Counted from the first letter of the stretch, positions 1 through 51,262 are shown. The stretch is 64,000 nt of DNA from Escherichia phage vB_EcoM_JS09 (NC_024124.2); one strand, 5' to 3'. Numbers and translations: made by a program. Notes: generated by a model not told the origin, from the sequence alone.

Positions 1-330
1 TGCAACGGTACAATTACCCTTGATGAGGCTGAAAAGCTATTTAATGAAGACGTTGATAAAGCCGTCCGCGGAATCTTGGGTAATGCTAAACTTAAACCGG
101 TATATGATTCTTTAGATGCAGTTCGTCGATGTGCATTGGTCAATATGGTCTTCCAAATGGGTGTAGCAGGTGTAGCTGGTTTTACTAATTCTCTTCGTAT
201 GCTTCAACAAAAACGTTGGGATGAAGCGGCAGTAAATCTAGCCCAATCTAAATGGTATCGTCAGACACCTAATCGCGCGAAACGCGTAATCTCAACATTT
301 AAAACAGGAACTTGGAAAGCGTATATATGA
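1..330 (+). CDS. e: Lysozyme (endolysin), C-terminal part; 5' end outside window
   Basis: Frame-1 translation from nt 1 (...[27 protein letters not shown]...[14 protein letters not shown]) matches recalled T4 lysozyme C-terminus; stop 328-330. Confidence 0.9.
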
Positions 331-3090: not shown

Positions 3091-3453
3091 ATGAAAGCAT
3101 ATCAAATTCTTGAAGGTGCGCATAAAGGCACTATTTATTTTGAAGACGGTACTCAGGCCCGGATTATTGTCTCTAAGACTTTTAAAGAAGACGCTATTGT
3201 AGACCCGGAAATTTTCTACGGTTTGAATGCCCGTGAAATTGAAATTGAACATCAACCTAAAGTTAAAATTGAAGGTGGTCAACACCTGAACGTTAACGTT
3301 CTGCGTCGTGAAACTCTGGAAGATGCAGTTAAGCATCCGGAAAAATATCCTCAGCTGACCATCCGTGTATCCGGTTATGCAGTTCGCTTTAACTCTCTGA
3401 CTCCAGAACAGCAGCGCGACGTTATCGCTCGTACCTTTACTGAGAGTCTATAA
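3091..3453 (+). CDS. Autonomous glycyl-radical cofactor (GrcA/YfiD-like)
   Basis: C-terminal [25 protein letters not shown] is the glycyl-radical signature of PFL/GrcA; T4 is known to encode a YfiD-like protein. Confidence 0.75.
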
Positions 3454-7457: not shown

Positions 7458-7760
7458 ATGGCCTTAAGAGCGATAGCTGTCATGGCGATGCTGGGGTTTT
7501 TTGCAGCAACAACTCCTATCGTTGGTACTGCATATATCGACCCATATTTTGATAACTTTATGGAATCAGGGATTAAAAACGTATATACTTTGTTTGAAAT
7601 TCAAAATGTCGAGAATTCTGAAAAATTCTATAAGTATATGGCAAAGCATTACAAAAATAGCCCCTGTGATGATGCATTTGAATGTCATGAACAAGGCATA
7701 AAAACTGCCAGACAATTTGCCGAGTTCATGAAAATAAAATTAGAGCCTACATCTATCTAA
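7458..7760 (+). CDS. rI: Lysis-inhibition regulator RI-like periplasmic protein
   Basis: MALRAIAVMAMLGFFAA... DPYFDNFMESGIKNVYTLFE... resembles recalled T4 RI; signal-anchor N-terminus; terminator follows. Confidence 0.8.
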   Translation: MALRAIAVMAMLGFFAATTPIVGTAYIDPYFDNFMESGIKNVYTLFEIQNVENSEKFYKYMAKHYKNSPCDDAFECHEQGIKTARQFAEFMKIKLEPTSI

Positions 7761-15386: not shown

Positions 15387-16337
15387 ATGACACGTTCACA
15401 TTACATTGATTATTTTGCAGGTCTTATCGCTAACGTTCATGCTCAGCGCGCTACTGGTGCACTAGGATTTGATGTTCCACACCGAGATGTAGTAAGTGGT
15501 ATTCTTCGAGATTTTGGCACATACACAGGTCAAGAAAATCATATCTGTAAAGATACTCAGAATGCGTATTCTCATTCATTAGGGACACTGCTTCATTGGT
15601 TCAAACGTTCTCGTTTATTATCTTCTACTGTGGCTCGTGATAACATTAAAAACTTTATGAAGCCGAGCTTTATTAAATCTGTGACATCTAAAACTGATTT
15701 GGTTGAATTTACTATTATTAACGATGTTAAAAAGACTCATTTGGCTGATTGGTTATCTACCATTCCTGAAACTAAATTTGCTGATAAATTTGCTTGTGAA
15801 TTCAATAACCAAGTGAATATGCTTTTTAAACATTCACGTAAATTATTCACAGGCGGTGATGGTCGTACAAATAAAGTTCATGTTAAAGATTGGGTTACTG
15901 CAGTATTCAAACCAACTGGTAATGGTAACGCATCATTGTCAATTGATATCCAGGTTCCTTATTACTACTCACGTAATCTCGGTACCATGAAAGCCGAAGA
16001 AATTAATAAGCGCAACAAAACCGTTCGTTCGCTGTCTTATAAACTTCGTATGATGTTACAGACTATGGATGTTGTTGAAATGTTCAGCGAAACTGAAGAT
16101 AATGGTTCAATGTTATTCAGTTCTCGTATTCAAATTAAGCTGAAGAACCCTAATACGTATAAACCTAAGCCTATTAAAGAGCCTAAAGCAGAAAAAGTTG
16201 ATAACTTAAGAGAAGAACGCGAATATCTCAAATCTCGTCTGAAAGAAGTCGAAGCCCAGATTGCAGAACAAACTAAATCGTTAAAAGCTCTGAATGCGAA
16301 AGCGGATGGCTTACGAAATGCCATTGAGGTGTTATAA
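15387..16337 (+). CDS. Hypothetical protein with C-terminal coiled-coil
   Basis: 316 aa; preceded by GTTTAC..CCAAGGATGGTTGGAGTATAAT cassette. Confidence 0.5.
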   Translation: MTRSHYIDYFAGLIANVHAQRATGALGFDVPHRDVVSGILRDFGTYTGQENHICKDTQNAYSHSLGTLLHWFKRSRLLSSTVARDNIKNFMKPSFIKSVTSKTDLVEFTIINDVKKTHLADWLSTIPETKFADKFACEFNNQVNMLFKHSRKLFTGGDGRTNKVHVKDWVTAVFKPTGNGNASLSIDIQVPYYYSRNLGTMKAEEINKRNKTVRSLSYKLRMMLQTMDVVEMFSETEDNGSMLFSSRIQIKLKNPNTYKPKPIKEPKAEKVDNLREEREYLKSRLKEVEAQIAEQTKSLKALNAKADGLRNAIEVL

Positions 16338-17311: not shown

Positions 17312-17664
17312 CATATTCATTAAATCTTAAAGATTTCCAAGATGTATACGAAGTTTGTGCCAATGAACTTGGTCCTGATGCTCCAACTATTATTGAAGTT
17401 TTAAATGTGCTCCCTTCATCATTAGCTTACGAAGCCAAATCATGGGGTTGGAGCGACACTGTCGTTCGTGATGACCTTTACGTCCTGATGAACGATATGA
17501 TGGTTAAAAAGGCAGAACCGGTTGCACCAATGGTTACCATTACCGTTGAAGAATATAATCGCCTGCAAGCCATTGAAGAGCTTCTGTGGAACATTGAATG
17601 TGACCTGCCGTCAGGGCTAGAATCCTGGATTGATTATGAAGAGCTCAATAAACTCCGGGGTTAA
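17308..17664 (+). CDS. Hypothetical protein
   Basis: 118-aa ORF with ATGA coupling. Confidence 0.5.
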   Translation: MTYSLNLKDFQDVYEVCANELGPDAPTIIEVLNVLPSSLAYEAKSWGWSDTVVRDDLYVLMNDMMVKKAEPVAPMVTITVEEYNRLQAIEELLWNIECDLPSGLESWIDYEELNKLRG

Positions 17665-17792
17665 ACCGTGGTATTCGGCTCGATGGGAGACAGTCGAGCC
17701 AGACGTCGAAACAGTTTACAATGACGAAGAAACGTGTTATGATGAACCTTCAATAAATGAATTAATTGATATGGAAATGGGAAGAGATTATT

Positions 17793-17963
17793 ATGCAAGT
17801 TAAATTATTATACCGTTTATTAAAAAATGGCAAGCATGATTGGTATTTGCTTATTAAAACCGATCCGAATTTTTTCTCTGGACAACCATTTACAGTTCGT
17901 CCTACTAAACGTCAGCTTCGCAAAGCTAAACGTTCTCATCGTAACTTTTATAGAGAATATTGA
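17793..17963 (+). CDS. Small basic protein, RPTKRQ-motif family
   Basis: C-terminal FTVRPTKRQLRKAKRSHRNFY; SD gggaagag. Confidence 0.45.
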   Translation: MQVKLLYRLLKNGKHDWYLLIKTDPNFFSGQPFTVRPTKRQLRKAKRSHRNFYREY

Positions 17964-49049: not shown

Positions 49050-50072
49050 ATGGCTGAATGGATAGATAATGAATTTGCTTATCGTGTGTTTTCTCACCTC
49101 CCTCGTTTTAGACAAATCAATAATTCAAGCACATTTAAATTAACGTTTCGTTGTCCAGTTTGTGGCGACTCCCAGACAGATGCAATGAAAGCTCGCGGTT
49201 GGTATTATGGCGGTACTCCTGGTAATGTACATTGCTATAACTGTCAATACCACAATACAATTTCCGGATACTTAAAAGAGTATGATGAAGAGCTTTATCG
49301 CGAATATCTAATGGAAGTTCGTAAAGAAAAAGCTAGAATGGAACCAAAGATTGAAAAGGTTCCTGAACATAAACCAGAACCGGAGAAAAAGACTATAAAT
49401 TCTTTGCCGTCTTGTTCTCGTCTGGACAAGTTGCCTGAAGAGCATCCTATTGTGAAATATGTTAAGTCTCGGTGTATTCCTAAAGAATCGTGGAACAGAT
49501 TATGGTTCACATTAGAATGGCCCAAATTGGTCAACAAGATTCAACCTGGTACGTATAAGAAAGAGATTCCTGAACCACGTTTAGTTATTCCTATTTTTAA
49601 TAAAGATGGGAAGGCCGAGTCATTCCAAGGACGTGCACTTCGTAAAGATGCTCCTCAGAAATATATCACTATTAAAGCGTTTGAGTCTGCAACAAAAATT
49701 TATGGTGTTGAACGTGTTAAGGAAGGGGACGTCTGGGTAATGGAAGGCCCTATTGATAGTTTATTCATACCCAATGCAATCGCTATTACAGGAGGCTCGA
49801 TAGATTTAGATGTGGTACCATTTAAAGAACGTCGGGTATGGGTAATGGATAATGAACCTAGGCATCCGGATACTATAGCTCGCATGAAGCGATTAGTTGA
49901 TGCAGGCGAACGTGTCATGTTCTGGGACCGAGCTCCATGGAGATCAAAGGATGTGAATGATATGGTAATGAAAGAAAATGCAACACCACAAGAAATTTTA
50001 GAATATATGAAACAGAATATTTCAAGTGGGTTGCATGCTAAAATGAGATTATCTCGTTATTCGAAGATTTAA
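49050..50072 (+). CDS. 61: DNA primase gp61
   Basis: Zinc ribbon CPVCGDSQTD...CYNCQYH and WIDNEFAYRVFSHLP N-terminus match recalled T4 gp61. Confidence 0.9.
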   Translation: MAEWIDNEFAYRVFSHLPRFRQINNSSTFKLTFRCPVCGDSQTDAMKARGWYYGGTPGNVHCYNCQYHNTISGYLKEYDEELYREYLMEVRKEKARMEPKIEKVPEHKPEPEKKTINSLPSCSRLDKLPEEHPIVKYVKSRCIPKESWNRLWFTLEWPKLVNKIQPGTYKKEIPEPRLVIPIFNKDGKAESFQGRALRKDAPQKYITIKAFESATKIYGVERVKEGDVWVMEGPIDSLFIPNAIAITGGSIDLDVVPFKERRVWVMDNEPRHPDTIARMKRLVDAGERVMFWDRAPWRSKDVNDMVMKENATPQEILEYMKQNISSGLHAKMRLSRYSKI

Positions 50073-50266
50073 ACAAGCCCTATAATAGCAAAGGCCAAAT
50101 CAACTACAGTATCCAATGGAACAGAAGGAACTATAATACCATTAGCAACTAATAATGGTGCGATACCGAAGTTCCATGAAATAATGCCACCTACAACTAT
50201 TGCGGCGATAGCAGTTTTCTTTTTATTGCCTTTAATAGCATTGATTAACGATGGAAGTTTAAACAT
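50069..50266 (-). CDS. Small hydrophobic membrane protein on opposite strand
   Basis: Strong SD TAAGGAG 7 nt before ATG on minus strand; AT-rich third positions; MFKLPSLINAIKG...AIAAIVVGGIISWNFGIAPLLVANGII. Confidence 0.5.
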   Translation of the reverse strand: MFKLPSLINAIKGNKKKTAIAAIVVGGIISWNFGIAPLLVANGIIVPSVPLDTVVDLAFAIIGLV

Positions 50267-50354
50267 AATATCTCCTTAGTTACCTATTATTTATTACGCT
50301 TTATAAAATTAATGTTAGAATTAACTCTCTTATACTGAATTGAAAGGAAAAATA

Positions 50355-50876
50355 ATGGCACACTTTAACGAATGTTCACAACTTATTTCTGGTGTTGATA
50401 AAGCAGAAGAAGCTTATTTTAATGCTCTGATTCACGAAGATAAAGACCCACTTCAGGTAATGCTTGATATGCAGAAATCTTTACAGGTTCGTTTGGCAAA
50501 TGACAAGCCTGAACATAACAAACATCCTGATGAATTGGCCACTGCAGGCGACGTTGTTGATTGGCTGCGTAATCAGAAAGATTATATTGATGATGAATTC
50601 CGTGAACTGCTGACTTCACTTGGTGGTATGAGCAATGGTGAAAAAGCCGCCAGCAGTGTATGGAAGCCGTGGAAAGCACAACATGCTGAATATCGTAATC
50701 GTCGTATCGATGAACTGTCTCCTGAAGACCAGCTTGAAATTAAATTTGAGATGATTGATATTCTGCACTTCGTTCTGAACATGTTCCAAGGTCTGGGTCT
50801 TTCTGCTGAAGAAATCTTTAAACTTTACTACTTGAAAAACCAACACAACTTTGAACGCCAGGATAATGGTTACTGA
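50355..50876 (+). CDS. 56: dCTP pyrophosphatase gp56
   Basis: MAHFNEC...DKDPLQVMLDMQ...SPEDQLEIKFE...AEEIFKLYYLKN matches recalled T4 gp56. Confidence 0.9.
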   Translation: MAHFNECSQLISGVDKAEEAYFNALIHEDKDPLQVMLDMQKSLQVRLANDKPEHNKHPDELATAGDVVDWLRNQKDYIDDEFRELLTSLGGMSNGEKAASSVWKPWKAQHAEYRNRRIDELSPEDQLEIKFEMIDILHFVLNMFQGLGLSAEEIFKLYYLKNQHNFERQDNGY

Positions 50877-51158: not shown

Positions 51159-51166
51159 ATAATTTA

Positions 51167-51196
51167 AGGAATCCTTCGGGATTCCTTTTTTTTTTG
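51167..51196 (+). terminator. Rho-independent terminator after soc
   Basis: AGGAATCC-TTCG-GGATTCCT followed by 10 T residues. Confidence 0.75.
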
Positions 51197-51262
51197 TTTC
51201 TACAGTTTACAACCACTAAAAACTGTGTTAAGATATTATTACTTACTCAAGAGGAGAACAAT

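Follow-up and report, generated by a model that had tools for sequence, protein, structure and literature searches.

The DNA considered here is a 64,000-nt stretch (the window) of the genome of Escherichia phage vB_EcoM_JS09 (NC_024124.2), a Mosigvirus, that is, an RB69-like T-even phage. Between primase gene 61 and dCTPase gene 56 of this window lies a short open reading frame (ORF) that runs opposite to both, and which a preliminary description, made from the sequence alone, had put forward as a small membrane protein gene with precisely the end points, strand and length given in Table 1. That proposal is borne out by a protein family match, purifying selection, conserved gene order and a membrane-helix model (below), and, judged by these comparisons, the small ORF is a genuine protein-coding gene that is conserved across the T-even phages. 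Its translated product is MFKLPSLINAIKGNKKKTAIAAIVVGGIISWNFGIAPLLVANGIIVPSVPLDTVVDLAFAIIGLV. Gene 61 and the small gene meet tail to tail with overlapping stop codons, which leaves zero space for a terminator between these convergent genes, and on its other side the small gene is separated from the divergent gene 56 by a spacer of 88 nt (50267-50354). Over the 2.2 kb around the ORF, identity is 98.9% to Escherichia phage S143_2 and at least 95% to more than 150 records, and the exact protein sequence is already present in NCBI as a hypothetical protein (AHV82735.1 and others).

Table 1. Features of the gene 61-gene 56 junction in the JS09 window, and locations of the modules that hold distant homologues in other contigs
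Feature	Coordinates	Strand	Remarks
Gene 61, primase	49050..50072	+	Flanks the small gene
TTAA, 4-nt tail-to-tail stop-codon overlap	50069..50072		Gene 61 (+) and small gene (-)
Small membrane protein, 65 aa, coding sequence with stop codon	50069..50266	-	ATG start; orthologue of RB69ORF029w and T4 dam.1; PHROG 2024
Shine-Dalgarno sequence TAAGGAG	50272..50278	-	5 nt (ATATT) between GGAG and ATG
T4-type late promoter box AATAAATA, predicted	50288..50295	-	22-29 nt upstream of ATG; variant of TATAAATA with A at -13
Gene 56, dCTPase	50355..50876	+	Flanks the small gene
Non-T4 modules with distant homologues	L015 2501-3582; L016 2501-3623; L018 4001-5089; L019 2980-4213		Contig coordinates

The product matches PHROG 2024 from end to end (E=1.4e-26, residues 1-65 on profile positions 1-65 of 65). 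Against the RB69 homologue the ratio of nonsynonymous to synonymous substitution rates (dN/dS) is 0.046, with 3, 0 and 11 differences at codon positions 1, 2 and 3, respectively; the ratio is 0.105 against a 71%-identical metagenomic relative (contig L012), 0.144 against T4, and 0.089 between the homologues of phages Marfa and Potts1. Third-position variation alone cannot pick out the coding frame, since the wobble positions of the minus-strand ORF are shared by a plus-strand frame. That frame shares the phase of gene 61 and meets no further stop for about 69 codons beyond the TAA of the primase (50070-50279), and it is open in RB69 and T4 as well. All 12 diverged homologue loci keep the minus frame open, and 9 of them have one to four stops in the plus frame, so we regard the latter as a shadow frame and not as a read-through extension. 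An ATG and a strong Shine-Dalgarno sequence are present in all nine loci first compared and are kept on the minus strand only. The preliminary description was correct in calling the JS09 Shine-Dalgarno sequence strong; its spacer of 7 nt did not stand, as there are 5 nt from GGAG to the ATG and seven only if one counts from the middle of the motif. Sequences of the form AAGGAG, AGGAGG or GGAGG are equally spaced from the ATG in the homologues of T4, Gaprivervirus, Moonvirus, Gelderlandvirus, Marfa-, Potts1- and CkP1-type phages, Kanagawavirus and Mosugukvirus. The G+C fractions at codon positions 1, 2 and 3 of the ORF are 0.46, 0.37 and 0.25, in agreement with the AT-rich third positions that had been pointed out, and real genes of the window have third-position values of 0.26-0.34.

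The length of the ORF is not significant by itself, as the window holds many minus-strand ORFs of at least 55 aa. Seven other minus-strand candidates (62-159 aa) were compared with the PHROG profiles; none has a match, whereas the three plus-strand ORFs that overlap minus-strand candidates and were scanned alongside all have one, and we rejected the seven as genes. Among the candidates scanned, the small ORF is, as first claimed, the only convincing minus-strand gene of the window. A scan of both strands for tRNAs and Rfam RNAs found none. In related phages the ORF is annotated on the same strand as a hypothetical protein.

Homologues of the small gene were found by tblastn in 733 phage records, 689 of them with coverage of at least 80%. 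A word-indexed profile search gave 113 clusters, and every cluster with a named source comes from T4-like phages or enterobacterial assemblies; an exhaustive profile search of 1.84 billion representatives gave only 19 clusters. Comparison with the 56-61 interval of related phages, which the preliminary description had suggested as a check, finds the same gene in the same place in the T-even genera examined: on the opposite strand, abutting the 3' end of gene 61 on its gene 56 side. This arrangement is seen in T4T, RB69, UPEC01, PSD2001, CF1, STML-198, Marfa, Potts1, CIP9, PEi20 and PM2, and the CkP1 locus has it too; the position is kept in at least nine genera or groups (Tequatro-, Mosig-, Gapriver-, Moon-, Gelderland-, Marfa-, Slopek-like (a Klebsiella phage), Kanagawa- and Mosugukviruses). 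The same 4-nt overlap with gene 61 recurs in T4T, CF1, STML-198, Marfa, Potts1, CkP1, RB69 and CIP9. It has been lost in PSD2001 and in L012, where gaps of 108 nt and 18 nt, respectively, separate the two genes, and the protein is retained in both.

The family comprises three sequence subtypes. Two tandem paralogues are present in Gaprivervirus UPEC01 (locus L004, 2001-2198 and 2207-2407) and in metagenomic contig L012 (1805-2008 and 2001-2198), and each such pair consists of one T4/Mosigvirus-type and one Klebsiella-phage-type copy, in either order. The UPEC01 record wrongly calls the second copy a 'DNA packaging ATPase', PSD2001 leaves it unannotated, and in TH22 its frame is apparently disrupted. 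Annotation of the family is uneven in other genomes also. Edwardsiella phage PEi20 (AP014714.1) carries an intact yet unannotated homologue (locus L025, 593-804), and apparent intergenic gaps of about 210-310 nt appear where the homologue has been left unannotated, as in PEi20 and in the T4 RefSeq record.

Two previously catalogued genes are the nearest relatives of known standing. RB69ORF029w (NP_861719.1), from the type Mosigvirus, is the same gene, located between 56 and 61 on the 'w' strand (16061..16258). Its protein has two amino-acid differences from that of JS09 and otherwise no difference of substance, and 'hypothetical protein' is the only annotation it carries. The 2006 RB69 genome paper placed it among 'novel ORFs', a designation that follows from the lack of an annotated counterpart in the T4 reference, and predicted no late promoter for it. 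T4 dam.1 (ADJ39749.1 in T4T, at 17724..17924 between dam and 61; 'Uncharacterized protein dam.1' in UniProt) encodes a 66-aa orthologue that is 52% identical; it has the same strand relation and the same 4-nt overlap with gene 61, and GATAAATA and AAGGAGG lie upstream of it. In RefSeq NC_000866.4 the interval 17626-17934 is without annotation, though the dam.1 ORF is intact at 17738..17938. T4 differs from JS09 in having the dam methyltransferase gene between dam.1 and gene 56. The preliminary description had rightly placed T4 dam in the 56-61 interval and rightly found no methyltransferase at the JS09 junction, where the 88-nt spacer offers too little room for one, but its comparison was incomplete, because T4 has the homologue of the small gene as well. 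We considered the idea that the small ORF replaces dam and rejected it, since T4 carries both. Some Tequatroviruses align over the junction without extra sequence and hence lack a dam-sized insert; dam is a variable insert between the conserved small gene and gene 56. The family is thus already catalogued (as RB69ORF029w, T4 dam.1 and PHROG 2024), with function unassigned; new here for PHROG 2024 are a signature motif, the three subtypes and a predicted late promoter.

The main clue to expression of the small gene, absent from the preliminary description, is the late-promoter box upstream of it. T4 late promoters have TATAAATA at -13 to -6, and the T at -13 is poorly conserved among RB69-type phages (PMC1524935). 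Among 50 listed T4 late sites, 32 are perfect and 9 have A at -13, which makes this the commonest variant; most of the rest are single deviations, one being a TA-to-AT swap (PMC2988020). The 7-mer ATAAATA occurs 9 times in the window on both strands together, as against 30 +/- 5.4 expected from shuffles, an approximately threefold depletion. The sites are at 1671, 7202, 7425, 10858, 10870, 18571 and 50884 on the plus strand and at only two places, 50294 and 3138, on the minus strand, and seven of the nine lie no more than 40 nt upstream of start codons. The genes so preceded are a 70-aa gene (7233), rI (7458), an 88-aa gene with two boxes (10897), endonuclease VII (gene 49; 18606), soc (50922) and the small ORF; the rI box is the identical AATAAATA variant. 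It appears that the genome purges ATAAATA except where it is used. The other minus-strand AATAAATA (3132-3138) is inside a plus-strand gene (3091..3453) with no Shine-Dalgarno sequence or ORF start after it, and is probably inert.

An equivalent box is found upstream of the homologues. It reads TATAAATA in Marfa, Potts1 and CIP9, GATAAATA in T4 and PM2, CATAAATA in Gaprivervirus, PEi20 and contig L017 (and in L012, where CATAAATA precedes the first gene of the pair), and ATTAAATA in Moonvirus, Gelderlandvirus and CkP1. All early and middle transcripts of T4 run in one direction, and only late ones are made from either strand (PMC2988020). The small gene is opposite to all flanking early and middle genes, a polarity compatible only with late transcription, and we found no sigma-70-like promoter upstream of it on the minus strand. 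A differential RNA sequencing preprint on T4 reports 22 antisense start sites (bioRxiv 10.1101/2024.04.04.588121). Given the position of the box, the depletion and placement of ATAAATA, the boxes of the homologues and the strand polarity, the small gene is most likely a late, gp55-dependent gene. By the -13 to -6 rule (PMC1524935) we infer a transcription start at about 50281-50282 and a leader of about 16 nt; the corresponding T4 start would be at about 17722-17723 (+) of NC_000866.4. There are no terminator-like sites on the minus strand between 46000 and 50069, so such a late transcript would have to run antisense into gene 61. For experimental use we propose AATCGATA as a mutant form of the AATAAATA box.

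The 88-nt spacer must house both the late box of the small gene and any promoter of gene 56. It contains a -10-like element, TATACT, at about 50331-50336, but we found neither a clear MotA box nor a clear sigma-70 -35 element in it.

The protein itself is hydrophobic by its hydropathy profile, as had been stated. An AlphaFold2 model built on a 64-sequence alignment (predicted local distance difference test score, pLDDT, 83) has helices at residues 4-13, 15-41 and 51-62 and a loop at 42-50; the 27-residue membrane helix, 15-41, is followed by a proline-rich turn and then by a short hydrophobic C-terminal helix. A TMHMM segment at 21-41 was given for RB69ORF029w (supplement of PMC1524935). Five lysines precede the long helix, and two aspartates and no basic residue follow it, for charges of +5 on the N-terminal and -2 on the C-terminal side. 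Under the positive-inside rule, such a charge distribution predicts an N-in, C-out orientation. The modelled product is thus most likely a single-pass inner-membrane protein with a basic cytoplasmic N-terminus.

Among 27 non-redundant members the conserved positions are K/R17, W/Y31, N32, F/Y/L33, P37, A39, G43, L46, P47, V/I49 and D/E52. They are concentrated in the helix's outer half and in the turn that follows, and the first half of the helix is variable. From them we derived a family signature, W/Y-N-(F/Y/L)-x3-P-x-A-x3-G-x2-L-P-x-(V/I)-x-L-(D/E), which JS09 matches at W31, N32, F33, P37, G43, P47, V49, L51 and D52, with L in place of A at 39 and V in place of L at 46. The location of the signature suggests a partner-binding site on the periplasmic side, and the conserved patch resembles a periplasm-facing docking surface rather than the lining of a pore along the whole helix. 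Pfam and NCBIfam scans with the JS09 protein, 64 family members and the distant members described below gave chance-level hits only; searches of the PDB by sequence profile and by fold gave no match, and a viral fold library returned only the family itself.

Taken together, this is a genuine T-even gene that is probably transcribed late from a variant late box and whose product probably spans the inner membrane once. Host RNA polymerase carrying the phage late sigma factor gp55 would transcribe the small gene late in infection, opposite to its neighbours, from the AATAAATA box, and the mRNA would begin about 16 nt before the ATG and offer a strong ribosome-binding site; lacking a terminator, the transcript would continue antisense into gene 61. 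The basic, amphipathic N-terminus of the protein would stay in the cytoplasm, the 27-residue helix would cross the membrane, and the conserved turn and C-terminal helix would be exposed at the periplasmic face, where the signature in the outer half of the helix might dock a partner on that side of the membrane.

Several points weigh against this interpretation or parts of it. A 2006 hidden Markov model scan of RB69 late promoters has no site for ORF029w. The box is off consensus at -13 in JS09 and T4 and at two positions in Moon- and Gelderlandviruses, and how variant late promoters compare in strength in vivo is not established (PMC2988020). Evolution of the family is rapid, T4 and Mosigvirus members being 52% identical, and some genera carry duplicate copies; a role in host interaction fits this at least as well as a role in lysis. 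In the library of papers searched there was no mention of dam.1 or ORF029w, and no relevant work on T4 ribosome profiling or cappable-seq. Finally, late transcription and translation of the small gene are predictions from sequence, and the membrane orientation and envelope role are predictions too.

As to what the protein does, we tentatively favor a late role in the envelope, for example in helping to time lysis or to protect the infected cell, over one as an enzyme or virion component, and this can be called no more than a possibility worth pursuing. T4 rI, a small envelope protein expressed from a late promoter and a regulator of holin T, offers a parallel. The rI gene of the window (7458..7760) has the same AATAAATA variant at a similar distance, and both proteins are small, begin with an N-terminal membrane-targeting segment and are encoded in the early region, scattered and outside a lysis cassette. 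The two have no sequence similarity, rI is on the same strand as the early genes, and its periplasmic domain is about 70 aa, in contrast to the approximately 20 exposed hydrophobic residues of the JS09 protein.

Distant homologues bear on the same question. Members of the family were found in phage or prophage contigs outside the T4 group with library-wide E values of 5e-7 to 2e-4, and they match PHROG 2024 back at 1e-9 to 6e-11. Their contigs carry a lambda-J-type tail tip gene, and in 4 of 4 non-T4 loci the constant neighbours are a basic protein of 180-196 aa with a weak match to PHROG 1924 'minor tail protein', a protein of about 106 aa and a small membrane-anchored coiled-coil protein. 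A nuclease gene is near each module (endonuclease VII in L015, L016 and L018, and a SegE-like GIY-YIG nuclease in L019). L016 has a T4-type lysozyme gene two genes downstream, and L019 has one at a distance of about 1.5 kb; the L015 and L018 modules have no lysozyme, and tail genes come next. A lysis-cassette context for the distant homologues was thus only partly borne out, since the constant neighbours are the basic and the ~106-aa proteins and not lysozyme. The non-T4 context fits a late function near tail and lysis genes and does not establish a holin. A contig scan with the prophage-type homologue P0123 and a tblastn search of cultured phages with P0127 gave no matches.

The protein could, more specifically, be a holin, a pinholin-like protein or a direct regulator of lysis, that accumulates late in the inner membrane, oligomerises through the polar Trp-Asn face of its helix and so helps to time or trigger disruption of the envelope. 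In being small, predicted to be late and embedded in the membrane by a single helix with a conserved asparagine it resembles canonical holins (lambda S, the phage 21 S68 pinholin and T4 T), which also have a polar residue in a helix; its distant homologues are in late regions, in L016 and L019 near a T4-type lysozyme and with the membrane-anchored coiled-coil protein close by, and one T4-group homologue is labelled 'Holin' in UniProt (OE5505, A0A482MZV5). That label is a single unreviewed name among hundreds of 'hypothetical protein' entries, however, and neither the JS09 protein nor the 64 members nor the distant ones match a Pfam or NCBIfam holin family. Holins typically have a charged cytoplasmic C-terminal tail, whereas the last 20 residues here are hydrophobic, include two Asp and lack basic residues, with the charges clustered at the N-terminus; and the conserved residues are at the periplasmic end of the helix, not along it. 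The lack of lysozyme in L015 and L018, with tail genes next to the module, also argues against a holin. In T4, lysis requires holin T and lysozyme E and fails in t mutants; the small protein therefore cannot be a sufficient holin, T4 already having an essential one. In T-even phages the small gene is not beside an endolysin gene, but T4 lysis genes are scattered anyway. A T4-type lysozyme fragment at 1-324 (+) of the window, 57% identical over 108 aa to the L016 lysozyme and probably gene e, is about 50 kb from the small gene. We consider a holin or direct lysis regulator unlikely.

A different possibility is that the RNA is what matters, the late antisense transcript silencing or destabilising leftover primase and dCTPase mRNAs with the peptide secondary, or, conversely, early read-through transcripts keeping the small gene off until late. 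The conserved 4-nt overlap with gene 61 and the absence of a terminator on either strand between the genes would suit such a role, and the predicted late minus-strand transcript starts 60 nt from gene 56. On the other hand, purifying selection on the amino acids and the conserved signature indicate that the peptide itself is selected, and PSD2001 and L012 have kept the protein after losing the overlap. An RNA-level effect may be an added one, but as the primary role we find it improbable. Between these ideas stands a combined and quite speculative one, on which we would not wager much: a T-even-wide late membrane factor whose periplasmic motif would bind a host or phage envelope component, thereby adjusting when lysis occurs, lysis inhibition or how the infected cell is protected, and whose late transcript, through the conserved stop-codon overlap with primase, would at the same time act as an antisense switch against early replication-gene mRNAs.

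That the ORF is not a gene, and merely shadows a read-through extension of the primase, regulatory DNA of gene 56 or an oriA-like origin, is hardly credible. The wobble-sharing plus frame is open over the whole interval in JS09, RB69 and T4, the gene 56 promoter is nearby in T4, and the T4 oriA replication origin is annotated at the start of gene 56. Against this, the plus frame is broken in the 9 loci noted above, for which reason we rejected the shadow idea; the gene 61 stop codon is conserved, as are the minus-strand start and ribosome-binding site; and homologues occur in unrelated phage backgrounds without an adjoining primase. Just as implausible is a type I toxin-like or other early small toxic peptide with a host-type promoter and antisense RNA control: the peptide is small, hydrophobic and antisense to abundant early transcripts, and 1 of 64 family members has a chance-level Ldr toxin hit (E=0.1), but there is no significant type I toxin family match, no Rfam RNA and no sigma-70-like minus-strand promoter, T4 early and middle transcription is all of the other polarity (PMC2988020), and a late-promoter box is at the right distance.

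Beyond gene 56, directly 3' of soc (51166-51187), is AAGGAATCC-TTCG-GGATTCCTT, a stem-loop with a perfect 9-bp stem and a T-run after it. On the plus strand this makes a strong terminator, which would end the late transcript of soc; the scan flagged it on the minus strand too. A promoter-like site of the T4 early type comes next (51206-51234).

For the JS09 window alone this is an ordinary hypothetical gene, already annotated in hundreds of GenBank records. What gives it wider interest is that an intact, selected gene with a late-promoter box is at the same place in every T-even genus examined, despite the empty interval in the T4 reference; transcriptomic, proteomic and knock-down studies keyed to NC_000866.4 would presumably have missed dam.1. 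Should the protein act on the envelope late in infection, T4 lysis or superinfection biology, where some of the signals are still undefined, would gain a further player.

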